Source: an uncultured virus (IMG/VR IMGVR_UViG_3300037245_001434) (Duplodnaviria; Heunggongvirae; Uroviricota; Caudoviricetes). Taken from it: a DNA stretch of 64,000 nt. The stretch is taken from the IMG/VR virus record IMGVR_UViG_3300037245_001434, one strand, 5' to 3'. The notes beneath the pieces are model-generated. The model saw only the letters and a program-made list of their open reading frames with translations. It searched no databases and was not told where the DNA came from. The position numbers and the translations under genes were made by a program. This document shows positions 852 through 60,825 of the stretch, piece after piece (the stretch's first letter is position 1; each line of letters begins with the position of its first letter).

Positions 852-2018
852 ATGACCACAAGAACTGATCGTATAGTAATCGACGGGCTAAAGCGCAATG
901 ACAATGATTTTTTAGTCGTTTCTGCCAAGCCTACCCGCGCCGGTGTCTTTAACTACCTGAATCATGATGGGTCTATGAGGCGAGAGCTTCGACACCCTGA
1001 CGAGGTATTTAAGGCCGACTCTATGGCCACCCTCCAATCAACTCCGCTCACAGATTTACATCCTGCAAATGGTCGAGTCACATCACGCAATAGCAAGGCT
1101 CTCATGGTCGGGATTCAGTCTGGTGACGTAAAGCGAACAGACGACGACTACATTGAGACAAAAATCACCGTTACCGATGAAGATGCAATCAGCAAGATTG
1201 AGGCTAAGTCTCAAGTTGAGCTGTCATGCGGTTACGATGTTGATGTGGTAGATGAGGCTGGTGAATACAACGGCGAACCCTACGACTGCCGCCAAACAAA
1301 CATACGCTACAACCATATAGCCATAGTCCCTAAAGGTCGCGCAGGTTCTAAGGCTCGTATTTATTGCGACAGTATTGATGCTGCTGCATCTGAAGATTTT
1401 GAACTCATACTTGACGAGGAAGAACCGATGACCACTAAGACCCTTATCTCCAAGACCGTCAATAAAATGACACTTGGTTCATTAAAGCTTGATGCTATTG
1501 AGCTTAAACTAGATGAGGATGCGATGCTGGTTATTGCCCCTCTTCTAAAGCGAGCTGATGAACTTGAAGCGCATGCGTCGCAACTGCAGTCAGATAATGA
1601 CGGCCTAACCGGTCAAATTGATCAGCTTAAAGCAGATAGTGAAAAGCTAGTATCTACCGATGGACTTAATGCACTGGCAATTGAGCGTGCAGACGTTCTT
1701 GGTGTTGCTGCTCATGTTGGCCTAGAGAGCTTCGACGAATTATCAAACACCGACATCAAACGCAAGGTAATCGAAAAGCGCAATGACGGTCTTAAGCTTG
1801 ATGGCAAATCAGCTGAATATGTCGCGGCTCGCTTTGATGCCATCACCGAGCAGTTTGCTAGTGAAGTTAAGGGATTCAAATCTTTAGCTCTGCTTCATGC
1901 TGCTGTTAAGGGTGCGCAACCATCTCACGAAGACAGCCAGGACGAACCCGTAAAATCACCGCGTGACACATATCTAGAAAGGGTATCTGACATGCACAAA
2001 GACACCCTTAAGCACTAA
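852..2018 (+). CDS. prohead protease/scaffold (DUF2213 family)
   Basis: TRAGVFNY, ELSCGYD and YNHIAIVPKGRAG motifs; coiled-coil C-terminus; upstream of capsid genes. Confidence 0.85.
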   Translation: MTTRTDRIVIDGLKRNDNDFLVVSAKPTRAGVFNYLNHDGSMRRELRHPDEVFKADSMATLQSTPLTDLHPANGRVTSRNSKALMVGIQSGDVKRTDDDYIETKITVTDEDAISKIEAKSQVELSCGYDVDVVDEAGEYNGEPYDCRQTNIRYNHIAIVPKGRAGSKARIYCDSIDAAASEDFELILDEEEPMTTKTLISKTVNKMTLGSLKLDAIELKLDEDAMLVIAPLLKRADELEAHASQLQSDNDGLTGQIDQLKADSEKLVSTDGLNALAIERADVLGVAAHVGLESFDELSNTDIKRKVIEKRNDGLKLDGKSAEYVAARFDAITEQFASEVKGFKSLALLHAAVKGAQPSHEDSQDEPVKSPRDTYLERVSDMHKDTLKH

Positions 2019-53300: not shown

Positions 53301-54993
53301 CCAATATCATAAAACCGCACGTAGGCTTGGTTTCTGTAAACTCCAGTCAGTATGATGGTGTTATTGCCTCTCATCCCTATATCAGCATCAACCCGAGTAT
53401 ATTTCTTGAGTTCCGCAACCTTGCGTTCTACAAACATTTCATGACGCCGTAAGTCAGCCAGTAGTAATCTGTTCTCGTTTTCAATGGCTGTGATACCAAG
53501 CGTTTTCTTAATCCAGTTTTTAATCCGCTCTTTCACTTTGATTCACTCCTTACTTTAAGTAACAAAGCGGCCCCGTCATAAATTGACTGCTTTGTAGAAT
53601 TAAGACATATATGCTCAAAATCTGGTATATGCGCCCACAAATAAGCTTCAAAATCATCGCAGCATTTAAACTCACGCAAGATACTCTCATGCTCTTGAAA
53701 GTCTTTGCTGGCATCTGAGCTGCTATGTTCTATCCACCAATGCGTACATGGATAATGCCACTCGTCGCGCCAGTATGGTGGCTTTCCTACTATCGCCACA
53801 TGATCAGTAGCCATGCGCTTTATAACGCGCACCCGCTCAAATTTAAGCCACGTCCACGGCTTTAAAAGCTCGCCGCAATATCTCCACTTTGGTTTCTGGT
53901 TAAAGGTAACGTCGTAGCCTACAGATGCTTCTGGTATGTTTGGTTCTTTCATTTTCCACCTTCCAATTTCACCTGGATATTAACAAGCCTACTTTGACGA
54001 TAAATTGCTATGTAGTCGTAGGTTATTGGACGCTCAACAGTTATGCCGAGATCTGCAATGTGGCTAAGTTCAGGCTCATTAGCCAGAAGATACTTAGTGC
54101 TTTCGTCTGATGGGTGAATTAGTAAGCTGCTATCTACTGCGTCAAATAGCTTCTCATCAGCGTAGATTCGACCATAAGTGCCTGCATCGGTTATTTTGAT
54201 CGTCGGGCTATCACTCTCTACCCATGCAATATCCCGCTTAGGGCTATACAGCTTACCCTCAAACACAATCCAGCCGTCACGAATCCAAGGGGTAACAGAC
54301 TGCGGATTCTTTAGCCCCATTGCTCGAGCAAAGGCGGCATTGTTCCCGCCGTGGCATCGTTTGATGTAGTCTCTTAGGGGTTCTGCTTCCATTAAGTATC
54401 CTCTAATGCGTTATTTATCAGCTTAACCATAAATGCTGCATTTGCGTCTGCTTTGTCACTCATTCCAATGAACGAGACCAAGTTATCATCAGCGTCATAG
54501 ATGGCTGTATATACCGCAGTTCTAGCCACCCTTACAGGAGGCGTTATGTTTATGTTAAATTGCACCCTTAGATCTCAAGAATTCTTTTTGCTCAGCCTGG
54601 GTGCTGAATAAGTATGCAACTAGAAGCCCCTCCATTTTCACGCTGAAAGCTGCAAAGCTTACGCGAGCCGTTGATATTTCAGCCCCACTCGATTCTAGGC
54701 TATCAATGGAGATTTCTTCATTGCACCACTTACTTCCGTCTATTAGAGCTGAATACATTGTCTTGTTCCCGTTGGTTATTGCCTTAACTTGGATACAAGT
54801 ATAAACGCTACTGCTTTATATGTAAAGCTTTTTTATTTACTATCTTAACTCCAACAAACTCACTCACAGGCAAAAACCTATACAGCATCTGAAACCACAC
54901 GCCTAGCTCACCATTACGCTCCACTACCTCAATGGTTCGCGTGTTACCGGCGTGGGTTTCTACTGTGTAGGTTCCTGGGGCGTTGAATTGCAT
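50354..54993 (-). other. cluster of about 13 leftward hypothetical genes (includes Zn-ribbon protein 52440-53177 and Cro-like HTH protein 53949-54392)
   Basis: Closely coupled ORFs; promoter TTTACA-17-TATACT at 54798-54826. Confidence 0.55.
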
Positions 54994-55012
54994 AGGTGAT
55001 CCGTTTTAAGAT

Positions 55013-55086
55013 TGGAAGCGGCACAAGGAATTGAACCTTGATGCGCGGAGTCAAAGTCCGCTGCCTAACCATTCGGCCATACCGCT
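55013..55086 (-). tRNA. tRNA-Gln (TTG)
   Basis: GCGGA-CTTTGAC-TCCGC anticodon arm, GGTTCAATTCC T-arm, CCA. Confidence 0.9.
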
Positions 55087-55092
55087 TTAAAT

Positions 55093-55179
55093 TGGCAGAG
55101 AGCAATGGAGTTGAACCATAAGCGTAAACACTCACATTGCTTAGCAGGCAAGCTCTAGCACCGGCTAGAATTACTCTCT
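55093..55179 (-). tRNA. tRNA-Ser (GCT)
   Basis: CTGCTAA loop, long variable arm, GCCA end. Confidence 0.85.
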
Positions 55180-55183
55180 ATAT

Positions 55184-55269
55184 TGGAGGAAGGTGAAGGA
55201 ATCGAACCCTTGACGGTTACGTCACCCTGGTTTTCAAGACCAGTTGCCAGCCATTTAGCGGCACCTTCC
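55184..55269 (-). tRNA. tRNA-Ser (TGA)
   Basis: CTGGT-CTTGAAA-ACCAG, long variable arm, CCA. Confidence 0.9.
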
Positions 55270-55274
55270 TTAAT

Positions 55275-55357
55275 TGGTAGCGGGGGAGAGACTCGAACTC
55301 TCAAAGGTCGTGGGTCTAAACCACGTAGCTGTGCCAATTTACATTAACCACCCCGCC
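55275..55357 (-). tRNA. tRNA-Leu (TAG)
   Basis: CGTGG-TTTAGAC-CCACG, GAGAGTTCGAGTCTCTC, ACCA. Confidence 0.85.
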
Positions 55358-55362
55358 AGAAG

Positions 55363-55447
55363 TGGTGGATGAACTAGGAATCGAACCCAGAATGCCTTAC
55401 GGAACGGGGTTACAGCCCGCACGCGATCCATACGCGTCTATTCATCC
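55363..55447 (-). tRNA. tRNA-Tyr (GTA)
   Basis: GCGGG-CTGTAAC-CCCGT, long variable arm, ACCA. Confidence 0.88.
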
Positions 55448-55452
55448 TTATA

Positions 55453-55529
55453 TGGTACCCACCCTCAGAGTCGAACTGAGAATCACAGAGGCTTAAACTC
55501 TGTGGCGTTGCCAATTAGCCTAGGTGGGC
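55453..55529 (-). tRNA. tRNA-Leu (TAA)
   Basis: CAGAG-TTTAAGC-CTCTG, CTCAGTTCGACTCTGAG, ACCA. Confidence 0.88.
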
Positions 55530-55545
55530 ATTAAATATTAATAGG

Positions 55546-55620
55546 TCGGAATGGTAGGATTCGAACCTACGGCCTCTCGGTTCCAAACCGAGTCGTCTAC
55601 CAAGCTGACAATACACTCCG
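55546..55620 (-). tRNA. tRNA-Pro (TGG), CCA not fully encoded
   Basis: CGGAGTG start, CTCGG-TTTGGAA-CCGAG, GGTTCGAATCC; followed by CCT. Confidence 0.9.
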
Positions 55621-55640
55621 CCTATTAACACTCAGGCAAT

Positions 55641-55676
55641 AAAAAAGCCCTCGTAACTTTCGCTATGAGGGCTTTT
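55641..55676 (-). terminator. attenuator terminator upstream of the tRNA array
   Basis: Minus strand AAAAGCCCTCATAGC-GAAA-GTTACGAGGGC-TTTTTT. Confidence 0.85.
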
Positions 55677-55704
55677 CAGAATACTTCTTGTGCTGCTGAA
55701 AAAA

Positions 55705-55770
55705 CTACATAGCTGTCCCGTCCGAATAACTCGGCGATTGCGGGAGAACTTGTAATAGTAGTGCTTTCAT
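55705..55770 (-). CDS. putative attenuator leader peptide MKALLLQVLPQSPSYSDGTAM
   Basis: Codons CTA, CTA, TTA, CAA, CCG, CAA, TCG, CCG, AGT, TAT, TCG match the 7 downstream tRNAs; stop lies in the antiterminator strand. Confidence 0.7.
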   Translation of the reverse strand: MKALLLQVLPQSPSYSDGTAM

Positions 55771-55778
55771 AATGAAGA

Positions 55779-55807
55779 AGTATATATCAACCTTTCACGT
55801 TTATCAA
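55779..55807 (-). promoter_or_regulatory. sigma70 promoter TTGATA-17-TATACT for the leader/tRNA array
   Basis: Consensus match overlapping the 3' end of rtcB; 8 nt before the leader ATG. Confidence 0.65.
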
Positions 55808-56890
55808 CGGCGTTACGTGATGGATAGTATCCACTAAATCAGCCTGCAGGCGCATCACTTCAAAGATGTCCTTGTAAGCTAATGGCGATTCATCCAAGGT
55901 GCTTTCATCGACAAGCGCGGTAACGCCTTGCATGGTTGCCTTGAAATCCTCTACGTTAAGCTCTCGTTCTGCTTGCTTGCGCCCCATCACGCGCCCAGCC
56001 CCGTGAGAGCTAGAATATAAAGAATCAGGGTTTCCTTTACCTCGCACAATGAATGAGCCATCACGCATATTTCCAGGTATCACGCCCATCATTCCATCTT
56101 CTGCATGGGTAGCACCTTTCCGGTGAATCCATAAACCGTCTTTCTCTTCTGCATGGTTATGGTTACGGTTAATAAGATGATCCCATTCACCATGCCCATC
56201 ACAATAAAAAGCCATTGCATCAAGAACTGAAATTAACATCTGCTGGCGGTTTATTAATGCGTACTCAAGCGCCCAATTCAGATCATTGATGTATGCCTGA
56301 CCATTATCACTATCAACTCTAAATCCATAGTGCCCGTCACGTACCTTGCCCTCGGGATCTGCAAGCCGTACATATTCAGTAGCTATGCCATGGCCTACGC
56401 CGCGTGAACCGGAATGAATAATAATCCAAACCTTGTTAGTTTCATCTTTGCCAATCTCGATAAAGTGGTTCCCACCTCCAAGAGTACCAATACCTCTAAA
56501 CCCCTTACGCTTTTCAAAGGCTTTCCGGCCAAGGTCTGCCAAGTGCCAGGGATCTAAATCACATCCTGCAGGGTGTTGGTGTACTTTGCCAACGCCGACA
56601 GGAACGCGCGTGTATATCTCATCAAAGATCATCCTCCCGTTTTTTATAATGTCATCAACATCAAATGTAGTTGGCAGTGCGCACATTCCACACCCGATAT
56701 CGAAGCCCACCCATGATGGTAGAATCACTCCCTCAGTGGCTACGACTGCACCAATAGGCAATGAATATCCCGTGTGAGCATCTGGCATTAATGCACCCTT
56801 AATAGAAAAGTCTTGCTCCATTGCGCTGTTAAACTGCTCTAATGCGGTTTCTTCTAAGTGTTCTGCATAAATTTTAATCTGCTTGCTCAT
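55787..56890 (-). CDS. rtcB: RNA ligase RtcB
   Basis: MPDAHTGY, VGFDIGCG, GTLGGGNHFIE, HSGSRG, NHNH, HRKGAT and SSSHGAGR motifs. Confidence 0.95.
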   Translation of the reverse strand: MSKQIKIYAEHLEETALEQFNSAMEQDFSIKGALMPDAHTGYSLPIGAVVATEGVILPSWVGFDIGCGMCALPTTFDVDDIIKNGRMIFDEIYTRVPVGVGKVHQHPAGCDLDPWHLADLGRKAFEKRKGFRGIGTLGGGNHFIEIGKDETNKVWIIIHSGSRGVGHGIATEYVRLADPEGKVRDGHYGFRVDSDNGQAYINDLNWALEYALINRQQMLISVLDAMAFYCDGHGEWDHLINRNHNHAEEKDGLWIHRKGATHAEDGMMGVIPGNMRDGSFIVRGKGNPDSLYSSSHGAGRVMGRKQAERELNVEDFKATMQGVTALVDESTLDESPLAYKDIFEVMRLQADLVDTIHHVTPLINVKG

Positions 56891-56959
56891 TCAATATCTC
56901 CATCCCTCTCTCAACCAGCCGATCAAATACCGGCCACGTATGCGGCTTAGATAGCTGCT

Positions 56960-57901
56960 TTACAATTGCCGTTCAACTGCACTAACTAGAAAATCATCCC
57001 AAAAGCCGCGATCAACATTCTCTGGCAGCTCGCACGTAGAAGACAGCTCCTCTACTCGATCCATTAAGGCCTCAAGCGTTGGCGCTACCTCTGATAAGTA
57101 ATCAGCCTCACCACGCTTGATCCTCTTCAAGTAACCTGCCTGCTCAAGAGGGAAAACAATGGTTCCTTTGGTGTAAATCTCTTCAAGTTGATAAGCGGCT
57201 CTCATGGCATGTGAGAGTGCTTTCCAGTCAATGCCCTGGTTCTTTGCGGCTAACTCTGCCCTTGATCCAAATGCTGTTACGAATATAGCCAGTGATTCAA
57301 TGACGCTATCAACCTTTACTGTTTCGAGGAACTTCTTACCGCATACCTGATAGATTTTGCATTTGTTTGTATCTTTGTCGTTTGGCTCAAGGTGGTGGAT
57401 ATGCTCCCCTGTTGGTAGCATGCTCCATACGTCACGCATCCGTGTATCAGACGGAAGCCCACTAAGTAAAGCGATCACCTCTTTAGCTGCATTTAGCCTG
57501 CTACCTTTAACGCCATACTTAGCCGCCTGCCTTCTACAGTAACCAACAAACGCCTTAAGGTTCTTGGTGTAGAACTTATCTCTATTAGCAGCGATAGCTT
57601 TCCACACATCACTAGACTCGATGATCATTGAATCAGGAGCGTGTAGCATGTCAATCGCAACTGTTTGACCTTCACACGCAAGCTCAATGAACCGGTGCAG
57701 AGAAAACATTTCATCATCAATATCGCCAGCGCCGTTCTTTCCGTGCTTATCGCCGGTAGAGGTGCTGATTGATTTGGGAAATTTAGCCAGCAATATCTGC
57801 CGTTTCGTTGGCATATAAATACCCTTAAAGTCATCATCAGATGATTCTGTATTGGTGCCGTAAAGATGTGACCCAAACTTCATATAAACTAGCTTCTGCA
57901 T
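56960..57901 (-). CDS. DNA pol beta-superfamily nucleotidyltransferase (RlaP-like)
   Basis: FGSHLYGTNTESSDDDFKGIY and DWKALSHAMR motifs. Confidence 0.85.
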   Translation of the reverse strand: MQKLVYMKFGSHLYGTNTESSDDDFKGIYMPTKRQILLAKFPKSISTSTGDKHGKNGAGDIDDEMFSLHRFIELACEGQTVAIDMLHAPDSMIIESSDVWKAIAANRDKFYTKNLKAFVGYCRRQAAKYGVKGSRLNAAKEVIALLSGLPSDTRMRDVWSMLPTGEHIHHLEPNDKDTNKCKIYQVCGKKFLETVKVDSVIESLAIFVTAFGSRAELAAKNQGIDWKALSHAMRAAYQLEEIYTKGTIVFPLEQAGYLKRIKRGEADYLSEVAPTLEALMDRVEELSSTCELPENVDRGFWDDFLVSAVERQL

Positions 57902-58479
57902 TTTAGCTCTCCCTCTGCGCTTCTTGCGCGTTGGTGGTAGTATTCGATGATCTGATTCATTGCCCTGATGTAGAGTGTTTTATCTCCATCTATCAGGTAT
58001 GGCATGAGCTTCACTATTTCACTCATGTAGACCTTTGCGAAATTCTTATCGTTGGTGCAAATGCACTTGGTATTGTGAATAATATCAGCAAGCTTAATGG
58101 TCTTGCCGCCCGGTGTGGCGTTTGCAAGATGCTCTCTATCAAGGGCTTTCCTGATCTCTCTATTCCCATCCTCTGGCCGAGAAACATCAGTTACATCGCC
58201 AACCATTTGCGCTACATAGTTGCAAAAGCCAGCCTCTTTAATCTCATCAATGGTGACTGGCGTATCTTCAACCACATCGTGTAGGAATGCAGCGCTGATT
58301 GTGTCGCAACAGGTAGTAACAGAGGCCACTATCTGCGCTACAGCTATAGGGTGAACAACATAAGGCTCACCGGTGTACTTTCTCTTTTGCTCACCGTGTG
58401 CTTCAGCGGCAAACTCACACGCGTAGTCGATTAACTGCTGACTGCGATCATGCTTAATTCCGTGGTCGTACATTTTCAT
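57889..58479 (-). CDS. HD-domain hydrolase, small alarmone hydrolase/SpoT-like
   Basis: AEAHGEQKRKYTGEPYVVHP, FLHDVVEDT and IKLAD motifs. Confidence 0.85.
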   Translation of the reverse strand: MKMYDHGIKHDRSQQLIDYACEFAAEAHGEQKRKYTGEPYVVHPIAVAQIVASVTTCCDTISAAFLHDVVEDTPVTIDEIKEAGFCNYVAQMVGDVTDVSRPEDGNREIRKALDREHLANATPGGKTIKLADIIHNTKCICTNDKNFAKVYMSEIVKLMPYLIDGDKTLYIRAMNQIIEYYHQRARSAEGELKCRS

Positions 58480-58585: not shown

Positions 58586-60055
58586 TTAGCTAGAAATACG
58601 CGCTCTAATAGCCGCTAAAGTTTCATCAACTTTCAGCTCACCATTTAGGAAGATGGTTTGCATCAAACATGGCTCAGTATGGTTTAGAGCCAATCGATCC
58701 TTGCATACCAGCTCACCATCAACCATCTGCACGGCGACACAACCAGTATTTGATTTCTTCGTTCCATCATCCGTTTTAGGGTCTTTGAAGATCATCTTCT
58801 CTTCACCGTCAATGACCACCATTGTTGACTTCATGGCAAAGCCAAACGTATCTCTGGTGTTGTATTGGTAGGTGTATGAGCCAATACCAAAAACCACATT
58901 GGTAGATGCAAACCCTTTCTCAGCCAGGATATAGCAAATAGCCTCGCATCGCTCTGGCGTAATAGAATCGCCATAGATCGCCCCAATATGTGAATCAAGC
59001 TCAATATAGCCCTGTGCGTTCTTCTCACCACCAAAGATATCGTAAAGACACTCAACCACGCCTTTGTATTCTTGCGAACCCTCTTCCGCTGTTAAGTCAC
59101 CACAAATGATATCTACAGGGTCGCCACTATCAGGCCGAATAACGACCTTGCCATCTCTGGCCATAATTTCAGGCTTTAGCGGCTTGATGATAGTTTCTAA
59201 GCAGCCGAACAGATCCCACGTATCGGAAACAATGCTAATAATGCCTGTAGGGTAGACCTCAGAAATTAACCGGCGATAGGTTTCAAATTCATTATCAGCG
59301 CCACCGGCACACATTACAGAGTGCTCTGTAGCGTTAACTGATGTACCAACCAACTCCTTCTCAATATCAGCGTTATAGTACCGCTCAAGGTAAGCAATAG
59401 CAGGAACGGTATCAGTGCCAACAAACGAAAGAAGATGCCCTGCACCAGATAGCATTGCAGCGTCAATGCCTGCCATCCCCCTCATACTGAAGTCATGACC
59501 CTGGAATGGCACGAAGTCAGTCGAACCTGCCGTTTTTAGTGCGTACTCATCAAGGATAGACCGATAAGAAAGTGCAATCGTCGCCGCTGTTGAAGTTAGC
59601 CACATCTCAGTAGAGGCTAAAGTTTCAATGTAGTTAGTTAGCCAAAAGAATCGGCTATCAACGTTATGCACTGTTAGCATTGGCACCCGCATAGGAACAA
59701 GCGTGCCTTCTGGCAAAGCTTTAATGTGCAACGGCATATATCCAAGCTCATGCAGCTCTTCAATATGCTTGGTTTCTGGATTCTCGATAAACAGCGTGTA
59801 TTTGATGTATCGCGCATATTCGGCAACAACATCATCAATCGGGCGAGAGAAGAAGTTTTCATTGAAGTAATCGATGAGTATCTTCTTAATCATCCCTTGT
59901 GCGCCAAAAGCTACAACTGATTCAGCTCTTGGGAAATATTTGTTAGAACGAGGTGTCCACGTTGAATAGACGACCTCTGTTTTATCTGGGTACTGTGCGC
60001 GGTGTGATATTTTGTAGAAATCACAAAGTAATGTTGCTGGTGTTGTATGTCTCAT
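58586..60055 (-). CDS. nicotinamide phosphoribosyltransferase-like protein (Namat candidate)
   Basis: CDFYKISH, HDFSMRG, ATEHSVM, SIVSDTWD, VIRPDSGDP and KDPKTDDGTKKS motifs. Confidence 0.92.
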   Translation of the reverse strand: MRHTTPATLLCDFYKISHRAQYPDKTEVVYSTWTPRSNKYFPRAESVVAFGAQGMIKKILIDYFNENFFSRPIDDVVAEYARYIKYTLFIENPETKHIEELHELGYMPLHIKALPEGTLVPMRVPMLTVHNVDSRFFWLTNYIETLASTEMWLTSTAATIALSYRSILDEYALKTAGSTDFVPFQGHDFSMRGMAGIDAAMLSGAGHLLSFVGTDTVPAIAYLERYYNADIEKELVGTSVNATEHSVMCAGGADNEFETYRRLISEVYPTGIISIVSDTWDLFGCLETIIKPLKPEIMARDGKVVIRPDSGDPVDIICGDLTAEEGSQEYKGVVECLYDIFGGEKNAQGYIELDSHIGAIYGDSITPERCEAICYILAEKGFASTNVVFGIGSYTYQYNTRDTFGFAMKSTMVVIDGEEKMIFKDPKTDDGTKKSNTGCVAVQMVDGELVCKDRLALNHTEPCLMQTIFLNGELKVDETLAAIRARISS

Positions 60056-60066
60056 GCTATCTCTCC

Positions 60067-60825
60067 CTAAATTAGCTTGATTTTCTGACTTGTCGCAGAA
60101 AGTAAGTTGTCTTTTGATGTGTAAAGCCCGTCTATATGGTCGAATAATTCTCCTGTGAACACGTTATTTTCTAAATGCGCCACTAACAAAAATACTTCTT
60201 TAGCGCCCTTAGCTCTTAATTCCTTGGCGGCCCCTATAAAGGTGCCACCTCTACTGCATAGGTCATCAACGATTAGTACACGCTCACCTACATCACCTAA
60301 GATGCTGTATGACTGAATATCGCCGCTCTCGAAGTCACGATGCTTATGCCCGACTGCATACTTTAATGGTGATAGGTATCTCTTTTGTGCCCCCGCATCA
60401 GGGAAAAGTAGCGAGTCTGCGAGAATGTCGCGACCCACAGATCCAATCTTTTGCTGACACCACTCAATAGCTTTGCACTTATCTAGTAGCGGCTGAGAAA
60501 CATCAGAATGCGGTTCAATTATGGTGACGCTATCGAACTCCAGGTTGTTAATAAGGTCAGCAGAAACTTTGAGGCCCATGCAATAATGATCGTTTACTCT
60601 ATCCATTCTTGAGTGAGGCATATACCGAATAGTAAGATCGTTTATCGACTTATCAATCCTATTTAATTCGTGCTTCAGCATAGCTAACTGAAAAAACTCT
60701 TCATCTCCCTCATAGACCCACTCGACAACATTGCGCTGCTGCATGCCGATAGCACTAATAGGCAAATAGGACTCATTATTTGGGAACTTACCAAACTCAA
60801 TATCATTACAATTTAGCTTTATCAT
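60067..60825 (-). CDS. ribose-phosphate pyrophosphokinase-like protein (Adps candidate)
   Basis: FPNNE, YMPHSRMDR, FPDAGAQKRY and IVDDLCSRGGTF motifs. Confidence 0.9.
   Translation of the reverse strand: MIKLNCNDIEFGKFPNNESYLPISAIGMQQRNVVEWVYEGDEEFFQLAMLKHELNRIDKSINDLTIRYMPHSRMDRVNDHYCMGLKVSADLINNLEFDSVTIIEPHSDVSQPLLDKCKAIEWCQQKIGSVGRDILADSLLFPDAGAQKRYLSPLKYAVGHKHRDFESGDIQSYSILGDVGERVLIVDDLCSRGGTFIGAAKELRAKGAKEVFLLVAHLENNVFTGELFDHIDGLYTSKDNLLSATSQKIKLI

Follow-up and report, generated by a model that had tools for sequence, protein, structure and literature searches.

Architecture of the locus

The window analysed here is a 64,000-nt stretch of DNA from an uncultured virus (IMG/VR record IMGVR_UViG_3300037245_001434), and all coordinates refer to it unless another contig is named. 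The element under study is located on its minus strand where, from position 56100 down to 54800, the 3′ end of rtcB is followed by a promoter, a 21-codon open reading frame (ORF), a terminator and seven tRNA genes (Table 1). A preliminary description of this DNA had named these parts, together with a hairpin inside the ORF and an alternative antiterminator pairing, and had proposed that the ORF encodes a leader peptide controlling the tRNA array by attenuation. Promoter, ORF and terminator were all recovered where that description had placed them. The promoter overlaps the end of rtcB, with the rtcB stop codon lying between its -35 and -10 hexamers. A distance of 8 nt separates the -10 hexamer from the leader ATG, which corresponds to a predicted 5′ untranslated region of 0-3 nt; these 8 nt contain no Shine-Dalgarno sequence, as had been described. 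No sigma-70-like site was detected between the terminator and the tRNA genes by our scan, which sees sigma-70-type promoters only.

Codon content of the leader

The codons of the leader were compared with those read by the tRNAs encoded behind it. Under the decoding rules that U34 reads A or G and G34 reads C or U, the seven anticodons of the array account for 14 codons. As background we used 72 long, non-overlapping ORFs of the window comprising 16,142 codons, in which the array-read set makes up a fraction of 0.183 and the amino acids P, L, Y, S and Q a fraction of 0.244. After the ATG, 11 of the 20 leader codons belong to the strict array-read set (binomial P = 2.5e-4), and 12 of 20 residues belong to these five amino acids (binomial P = 7.5e-4). 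The preliminary description had counted 11 array-read codons among the 13 at positions 4-16, with all seven tRNAs represented, and this count holds under the rules given above. To correct for the earlier choice of these positions, all 13-codon windows were scanned. None of the 15,278 such windows in the 72 long ORFs reached 11 array-read codons. Among 688 six-frame ATG ORFs of 15-40 codons a single one did so, namely the leader, with all seven tRNAs represented. A simulation that scored the in-set count together with the presence of all amino-acid types gave P = 3.9e-4. The codon match is therefore unlikely to have arisen by chance. An apparent preference for the rare codons CCG and TCG within their codon families was dropped, as it was inconsistent in other leaders.

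Related leader/array pairs in other phage contigs

We compared 22 loci encoding RtcB relatives in IMG/VR (44-68% identity). Only one of them (L014, 59%) shares the leader arrangement. Here, rtcB is followed by the promoter TTGACA-17-TATATT, six bases, a 19-codon ORF (MKFICPSYLSLLPPKRLEV), a terminator with a CGAAAG loop and tRNAs Pro-TGG, Leu-TAA and Leu-TAG. Twenty of the remaining RtcB relatives have no tRNA array directly downstream of rtcB. Using a 21-nt word from the D-arm of the tRNA-Leu (TAG) as a search anchor, we obtained four more contigs with the layout (L023, L028, L025 and L034). A corresponding search with the D-arm word of the tRNA-Leu (TAA) returned three chance matches outside tRNAs and the contig of L014 itself. 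In total, six further leader/array pairs of the same layout were found on five uncultured phage contigs, L028 carrying two of them, and the leader ORFs of the seven elements span 19-32 codons.

The leader of L023 (MKTFTSLQLSWSQSYPLLSERTTCL) precedes tRNAs for Gln, Pro, Trp, Ser, Ser, Tyr, Leu and Leu. In L028, leader A (MITFLHLSQSLSLYPYPHGYFGLRM) stands before tRNAs for Gln, Pro, His, Leu, Leu, Tyr, Ser and Ser, and leader B (MINLTTNTNRIFTNEIRWGGFACVKNTGIDKM) before tRNAs for Trp, Asn, Asp, Lys, Ile, Phe, Arg, Glu, Gly, Cys, Val, Ala, Met and Arg. The leader of L025 (MKTLLLKLEQLEKHEKSCAGMVSFS), which is identical in L035, is followed by tRNAs for His, Glu, Lys, Lys and Glu and then by Leu, Leu and Lys, and that of L034 (MKKILLSSSWSLSLYLGRGPNCLET) by tRNAs for Leu, Tyr, Tyr, Ser, Leu, Trp and Ser. 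The two leader/terminator elements of L028 (277-455 and 1198-1392, plus strand) are arranged in series on a 13-kb contig. Among 14 distinct contigs containing the Leu-TAG word, a leader is present in six (five when L025 and its TARA copy are taken as one), and the other eight have no leader within 2.5 kb on either side.

Several candidates were not included. L050 (1100-1300, plus strand) was left out as ambiguous because a consensus promoter lies between its terminator and its tRNAs; it shares the terminator loop of L028 A, has a perfect 10-bp upstream complement to the 5′ arm and contains a possible TTG-started 21-codon ORF that ends just past this complement. In L024, neither a terminator without an ORF before a His/Thr/Glu block nor a Lys-rich, Shine-Dalgarno-led ORF of ~85 codons with a terminator before a Lys, Lys, Lys, Ser, Ser, Leu block (~1810-2230, array orientation) was counted. 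The latter ORF could represent an extended form of such a leader, or it may simply encode an ordinary basic protein. Two cultured Vibrio phages with a similar tRNA-Pro do not carry such an element: in D497 it is a lone tRNA among small ORFs, and in VPG01 a Shine-Dalgarno-led 51-codon ORF precedes the array without a terminator.

Co-variation of leader composition with the array

The preliminary description had suggested examining whether leader codons co-vary with array content in related phages, and they do so in the six further pairs, with L014 as a partial exception. Four leader regions were submitted to MAFFT and could not be aligned; alignment is uninformative here because the order of the peptide residues is not conserved. 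The composition, however, follows the array. In all seven cases, the leader contains each type of amino acid for which its array has a tRNA (5/5, 2/2, 6/6, 6/6, 13/13, 4/4 and 6/6). His codons occur only where a tRNA-His follows (L028 A and L025) and Trp codons only where a tRNA-Trp follows (L023, L034 and L028 B), and a Lys/Glu/His leader precedes the Lys/Glu/His array of L025. Leaders A and B of L028 employ almost complementary residue sets, each matching its own block, and only one of the 31 residues of leader B is L, S, P, Q or Y.

When leaders and arrays were permuted against each other, the summed match of the leaders to their own arrays was the best of 5040 permutations and was equalled only by the identity. 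This was the case for broad arrays and alike for strict arrays, i.e., the first contiguous block with confident tRNAs only; a version based on raw fractions gave 2/5040. For the individual leaders, simulated P values ranged from 1.5e-5 to 2.2e-3 (in-set count plus presence of all types). Furthermore, we performed a scan that is blind to composition and recognizes any terminator at most 70 nt from a tRNA block with any ATG ORF of 12-46 codons ending near it. After removal of six duplicate loci, it returned 7 matches in 43 blocks (6 distinct in 42, as L035 duplicates L025), and all of the ORFs were the composition-matched leaders. One further block had a terminator without an ORF.

Terminator, antiterminator and RNA folding

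The strong intrinsic terminator of the preliminary description corresponds to a hairpin with a GAAA loop and a T-run (Table 1). A simple terminator scan had missed it because its stem contains an internal mismatch. A CGAAAG loop is common to the terminators of the window, L014, L023 and L028, and the stems differ. The region 55790-55630 folds at -49.3 kcal/mol into a long leader hairpin and the terminator (z = -5.06; 0/200 shuffles as good). The hairpin noted earlier within the ORF belongs to this minimum free energy (MFE) fold and may represent the core of a leader (1:2) structure and a candidate pause hairpin for RNA polymerase.

We also searched the upstream RNA for partners of the terminator 5′ arm. 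The best duplex is the antiterminator that had been proposed, which forms between segments 2 and 3 at -15.4 kcal/mol, compared with a shuffle mean of -9.0 (z = -2.70; 13/500 dinucleotide shuffles as good, 0.026). As segment 2 spans the stop codon, a terminating ribosome would cover it. In the whole-region MFE fold, the 5′ half of the leader is paired with segment 2. In all seven leaders, the strongest pairing of the terminator 5′ arm with upstream RNA surpasses shuffled sequences (0.004-0.032 each; Fisher combined 1.1e-7), and in each of them the upstream strand of this pairing lies between -24 and +16 nt from the first base of the stop codon. At this site it would be covered by a terminating ribosome and free when the ribosome stalls earlier.

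To model the ribosome, its footprint was masked at each A-site codon and the remaining RNA folded at equilibrium, both for full transcripts and for transcripts without the terminator 3′ arm. With the ribosome at codons 2-15, the window transcript without the 3′ arm has 13 nt of its terminator 5′ arm engaged with upstream sequence; with the ribosome at the stop codon, this number is 6. Five of the seven leaders show a similar decrease at the stop codon.

Signs of leader translation

None of the seven leaders has a Shine-Dalgarno sequence. The window leader and five of the others are preceded by a -10-like hexamer whose end is 5-8 nt from the ATG; in L034 the gap comes to 7 or 9 nt, according to which candidate hexamer is taken. 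A perfect TTGACA stands ~17 nt before the hexamer in both L028 leaders and in those of L014 and L023. Such short distances to the ATG predict a transcription start at or beside the A of the ATG, so that the leader mRNA would be leaderless and devoid of a Shine-Dalgarno sequence. L025 has its consensus promoter 38 nt upstream, with only an extended -10-like site near the ATG. The preliminary description had considered the ORF to be near-leaderless or re-initiated from rtcB. The former is favored by our comparison, and re-initiation appears less likely, because a -10-like hexamer close to the ATG recurs across leaders.

A variant of L023 with 92% identity (L049) differs from it by two indels within the ORF, both of 3 nt. 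The substitutions swap residues within the array set (S-Q-S to S-L-S, with both Ser codons changed synonymously). Identity amounts to 64/78 in the ORF and 81/86 in the structured part downstream. The in-frame indels and the maintained distance between -10 hexamer and ATG are indirect signs that the leader may be translated.

The tRNA array and neighboring genes

The seven tRNAs and the anticodons previously assigned to them are supported, albeit unevenly. Rfam yields seven tRNA-like matches, four of them over the tRNA gathering score, and ARAGORN at default settings reports four tRNAs (Pro-TGG, Leu-TAA, Tyr-GTA and Gln-TTG). With relaxed settings, ARAGORN misregisters the tRNA-Ser (GCT) as Gln-CTG; the Rfam-aligned anticodon loop CUGCUAA reads GCU. 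The low-scoring tRNA-Leu (TAG) is probably genuine, since the 21-nt D-arm word is exactly conserved across contigs. It was found in 9 IMG/VR and 10 metagenome stretches and lies inside tRNA arrays in all of them except L037, where it is at the contig end. The word is identical across very different phage contigs, and relaxed ARAGORN often misreads this tRNA as 'acta' or 'act' (window 55275-55354; L023-L041). In L023, a GOLLD RNA with an embedded tRNA-like match is found just downstream of the array (1563-2014, minus strand; Rfam RF02032, 174.3 bits at a gathering score of 150). Several tRNA arrays are split between blocks by protein-coding ORFs (L028 2187-2623, plus strand; gaps in L034 and L029).

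Table 1 Features of the leader element, the tRNA array and the upstream genes in the window.
Feature	Position	Strand	Basis or remark
Sigma-70-like promoter, TTGATA-17-TATACT	55807..55779	minus	10/12 consensus positions
Leader ORF, 21 codons + TAG, peptide MKALLLQVLPQSPSYSDGTAM	55770..55705	minus	ORF list; no Shine-Dalgarno sequence
Proposed sensing run, codons 4-16: CTA CTA TTA CAA GTT CTC CCG CAA TCG CCG AGT TAT TCG	55761..55723	minus	11/13 array-read
Hairpin inside ORF, TCCCG...CGGGA with inner CCGA/TCGG stem	55745..55716	minus	MFE and centroid fold; also fold of the ORF alone
Segment 2, candidate antiterminator 5′ strand, spans stop codon (55707-55705)	55713..55696	minus	Best duplex with terminator 5′ arm
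Segment 3, common to candidate antiterminator and terminator 5′ arm	55679..55662	minus	Duplex and masked folding
Intrinsic terminator, GAAA loop and T-run, -20.0 kcal/mol	55677..55641	minus	Ends 20 nt before tRNA-Pro
tRNA-Pro (TGG)	55620..55544	minus	ARAGORN; Rfam 40.9 bits
tRNA-Leu (TAA)	55529..55453	minus	ARAGORN; Rfam 50.7 bits
tRNA-Tyr (GTA)	55447..55363	minus	ARAGORN; Rfam 33.7 bits
tRNA-Leu (TAG), atypical	55354..55275	minus	Rfam 19.9 bits, under gathering score 29; relaxed ARAGORN
tRNA-Ser (TGA), long variable arm	55269..55184	minus	Rfam tRNA-Sec 41.5 bits, under gathering score 47; relaxed ARAGORN Ser-tga
tRNA-Ser (GCT), long variable arm	55180..55096	minus	Rfam tRNA-Sec 47.3 bits, gathering score 47
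tRNA-Gln (TTG), last in array	55086..55013	minus	ARAGORN; Rfam 60.1 bits
rtcB (RNA 3′-phosphate/5′-OH ligase), 367 codons	55787..56890	minus	phrog_1075 E 9.8e-110; Pfam RtcB PF01139 E 1.1e-87
RlaP-family RNA-repair nucleotidyltransferase	56960-57901	minus	Pfam RlaP PF10127 E 2.8e-11
HD phosphohydrolase	57889-58479	minus	Pfam HD_4 E 4e-17

Upstream of the element, rtcB is the last gene of an HD / RlaP / RtcB RNA-repair operon (55787-58479, minus strand), whose RlaP/HD gene pair also matches phrog_388 and phrog_990. As this operon ends at the leader promoter, genes for tRNA repair adjoin genes for tRNA replacement. Beside the operon (58586-60825, minus strand) lie genes for a nicotinamide phosphoribosyltransferase (489 aa) and a ribose-phosphate pyrophosphokinase-like protein (252 aa), which look like a phage salvage pair for nicotinamide adenine dinucleotide (NAD). 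Such a pair may be linked to NAD-depleting defenses. On the other side of the element, a 61-codon ORF without a family match (54808-54993, minus strand) begins 20 nt past the last tRNA, so that read-through of the attenuator may feed downstream genes too. The next promoter-like site after the array is found at 54826-54798. A DNA search of INPHARED for close relatives of the window returned tRNA and rtcB fragments only, the best RtcB in this collection being 52% identical to that of the window, and a 928-aa ORF of the window had no phage match. Among the public sequencing runs listed, the complete window is contained only in a DNA run of a marine-sediment metagenome, which may be its source, and no RNA run contains it.

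A probable leader-peptide attenuator for phage tRNA genes and its alternatives

The anatomy of an attenuator, its statistical support and its conservation together with co-variation are established by the analyses above. In these respects, namely anatomy, codon match and co-variation, the comparison with the trp, his and ilv attenuators made in the preliminary description is borne out. We therefore consider it likely that the element is a leader-peptide transcription attenuator that gates the phage tRNA array by decoding speed. From this anatomy we infer translation of the leader, its leaderless initiation, pausing and a response to tRNA supply, which could operate as follows.

Transcription would start at the promoter overlapping the end of rtcB, yielding an mRNA that begins at the AUG or within ~3 nt of it, and a ribosome would translate the 21-codon leader. 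With ample aminoacyl-tRNA for the Leu, Gln, Pro, Ser and Tyr codons, this ribosome would quickly arrive at the UAG and cover segment 2. The terminator would then form, and only a leader RNA of ~130 nt would be made. If any of the sampled codons is decoded slowly, the ribosome would stall within codons 4-16 and leave segment 2 free. Segment 2 could then pair with segment 3 and block the terminator, allowing RNA polymerase to enter the genes for tRNA-Pro, Leu, Tyr, Leu, Ser, Ser and Gln. As the products of the array would relieve the stall, the element would form a homeostat based on negative feedback, with OR logic across the seven tRNAs. The shortage could have its source in host tRNAs that are scarce for phage-preferred codons, in the decay of host tRNAs during infection or in cleavage by a defense nuclease.

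Several observations weigh against an attenuator of this kind. Regarding the folding, the terminator is the MFE structure of the full window transcript at every masked ribosome position, and once the terminator 3′ arm is removed, the 5′ arm pairs upstream in the antiterminator even with no ribosome present. Moreover, the expected drop of pairing at the stop codon is absent in L023 and weak in L028 A. As equilibrium folding never moves the MFE away from the terminator, the switch requires kinetic, co-transcriptional assumptions and a pause, as in classical attenuators; a purely thermodynamic switch is argued against. Regarding the codon match, 8 of the 20 leader codons of the window lie outside the array set, including CTC and GTT inside the proposed sensing run, and the leader of L014 contains two Ser codons and one Tyr codon before an array of only Pro, Leu and Leu, with 7/18 in the set. 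A single related Leu/Ser/Pro/Gln/Tyr class sharing a tRNA accounts for five of the seven pairs, so that the pairs are not independent and effectively represent three classes, and the definitions of the arrays were fixed after the leaders had been seen. The element is also absent from 36 of the 42 distinct tRNA blocks, and in one RtcB relative (L001) rtcB is directly followed by a tRNA-Pro, a leader being absent. On its own, the promoter match is not unusual, with 6 promoter-like sites in 5 kb compared with 9.6 expected from shuffles. Finally, leader translation, its leaderless start without a Shine-Dalgarno sequence and conditional termination are read from sequence.

A more specific function would be that of a counter-defense sensor. 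Here, an anticodon nuclease that cleaves or depletes any one of the seven tRNAs of the host would cause the ribosome to stall on the leader and replacement tRNAs to be induced, in concert with the RNA-repair operon. The location of the HD / RlaP / RtcB operon directly before the array, with the NAD-salvage genes further upstream, and the order rtcB, leader, tRNA-Pro kept in L014 are in line with this function, and an OR gate over many codons would suit an unpredictable target. Phage tRNAs have been shown to rescue infection from tRNA-cleaving defenses (PMC11555353, PMC10264068). However, damage by nucleases and ordinary scarcity are not distinguished by anything in the sequence, no rtcB appears within the stretch examined in four of the five further leader contigs, and a single RtcB relative out of 22 (L014) has the leader. 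The classic targets of anticodon nucleases are Lys, Tyr/His/Asn/Asp and Arg tRNAs, from which the sampled Leu, Ser, Pro, Gln and Tyr differ apart from Tyr. We rate a counter-defense sensor as unlikely, and host tRNA cleavage as the trigger, for which the genomic context is the only support, as doubtful. A plain negative-feedback homeostat fits the same anatomy as an anti-defense trigger, and simple feedback is the plainer reading. Speculatively, one might still picture a 'repair and replace' island, in which nuclease attack on any of the seven tRNAs stalls a leaderless test peptide and frees nuclease-naive tRNAs, with cut tRNAs being resealed by the neighboring HD/RlaP/RtcB operon. In a wider sense, phages might split their tRNA genes into blocks, each under a codon-matched leader as in L028, and thereby possess a modular, per-codon-class monitor of decoding capacity, for which no published counterpart among tRNA genes is known. 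We regard this picture as possible but tentative.

The ORF might also be untranslated, in which case the locus would consist of a terminator for the rtcB operon and a promoter, or of a small-RNA gene (~130 nt), and the tRNAs would arise from leaky read-through or from a phage-specific promoter invisible to the sigma-70 scan. Promoter, short RNA and terminator are the usual layout of a small-RNA gene, and the missing Shine-Dalgarno sequence, a promoter match not above chance and a terminator that remains the MFE structure under all simulated ribosome positions would agree with it. A chance ORF, however, would not be the single extreme of 688, and its composition would not track the array across seven leaders of scrambled residue order. 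Both 3-nt indels keep the frame, and the antiterminator partner lies beside the stop codon in 7/7 leaders, which is relevant only if a ribosome reads the frame. Considering both sides, an untranslated ORF seems improbable to us.

We give even less credence to a translated leader that reports general translation capacity or amino-acid starvation (charging of Leu, Ser, Pro, Gln and Tyr tRNAs), with the tRNAs simply belonging to a unit that starvation induces. For trp, his and leu it is established that leader-peptide attenuators sense charged tRNA, so that starvation would cause read-through as well. Extra tRNA, however, does not cure amino-acid starvation, and each leader tracks the tRNA genes behind it, even for the rare amino acids Trp and His and for both of the complementary L028 leaders, which argues for tRNA supply as the selected signal. 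A small functional protein with sequence-specific activity that stands before the array by happenstance can practically be dismissed, because although a 19-32-codon ORF is kept at the same position in seven elements, its residue order is not conserved, MAFFT fails, only the composition is kept and the peptides share no motif beyond the starting MK or MI.

Comparison with known systems

The role of phage tRNA genes has been debated for decades, the explanations being that they provide codon compensation, take the place of degraded host tRNAs or enable escape from tRNA-cleaving defenses. Their control has largely remained unaddressed. The preliminary description knew of no phage example of the proposed control, and we likewise found none in the openly readable full-text literature, to which our search extended with subscription-only papers outside it; a description of leader-peptide control of tRNA genes, phage or cellular, was not found there. 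If a leader-peptide attenuator of tRNA genes indeed operates here, the phage would gauge decoding speed codon by codon and make tRNA on demand, and the principle of classical attenuation, known for amino-acid supply, would apply to the tRNA pool as well. The leader would then be a direct, sequence-readable list of the codons that the phage treats as limiting. With ~170 nt, the element is portable and can be tested in a reporter, and it could act as a natural biosensor of specific tRNA shortages.

Among phages, a point of contact is offered by T5-like phages. In PMC11555353, a retron effector is described to deplete tRNA-Tyr, and T5-like phages express a tRNA-Tyr from a strong constitutive promoter. 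As might be the case for the element described here, the supply of phage tRNA is treated there as important for escaping tRNA-depleting defenses, whereas control is described there as promoter strength only. A text search of PMC11555353 and PMC10264068 gave no occurrence of 'attenuat' or 'leader'.

With T-box riboswitches, the element shares that tRNA status would be sensed and that a terminator and an antiterminator lie upstream of translation-related genes. T-boxes, however, bind uncharged tRNA directly and without translation, whereas the window element is built around an ORF. A T-box covariance model gave no match at E values up to 1 within 54500-56500. Likewise, the Rfam families of operon leaders (His_leader RF00514, Thr_leader, Leu_leader and Trp_leader) yielded at best a His_leader match of 23.3 bits, at a gathering score of 49 (E = 0.53), mainly over the terminator; the element has no homology to such leaders in sequence or structure.

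The nearest relatives in logic are the attenuators of enterobacterial amino-acid operons. Several of these employ multivalent leader peptides, such as ilvGMEDA with Ile, Leu and Val codons and thr with Thr and Ile codons; trp, his, leu and pheA are controlled by leader peptides as well. The window element resembles them in its short ORF rich in the sensed codons, its mutually exclusive antiterminator and terminator, the position of the antiterminator 5′ strand beside the stop codon and its putative OR logic over codon types. The leuL leader also uses slowly read codons such as CTA, a likeness to the leader of the window. In contrast to these operons, the element would regulate tRNA genes rather than amino-acid biosynthesis, and it is located in a phage. 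It samples five amino acids and seven anticodons, mostly by single scattered codons and not by runs, and it lacks a Shine-Dalgarno sequence on an apparently leaderless transcript. A component of the decoding machinery is already known to be under such control, as pheST, encoding phenylalanyl-tRNA synthetase, has a leader-peptide attenuator. That attenuator controls a synthetase and senses one amino acid, whereas the product of the window element would be the sensed molecule itself, which would provide direct feedback.

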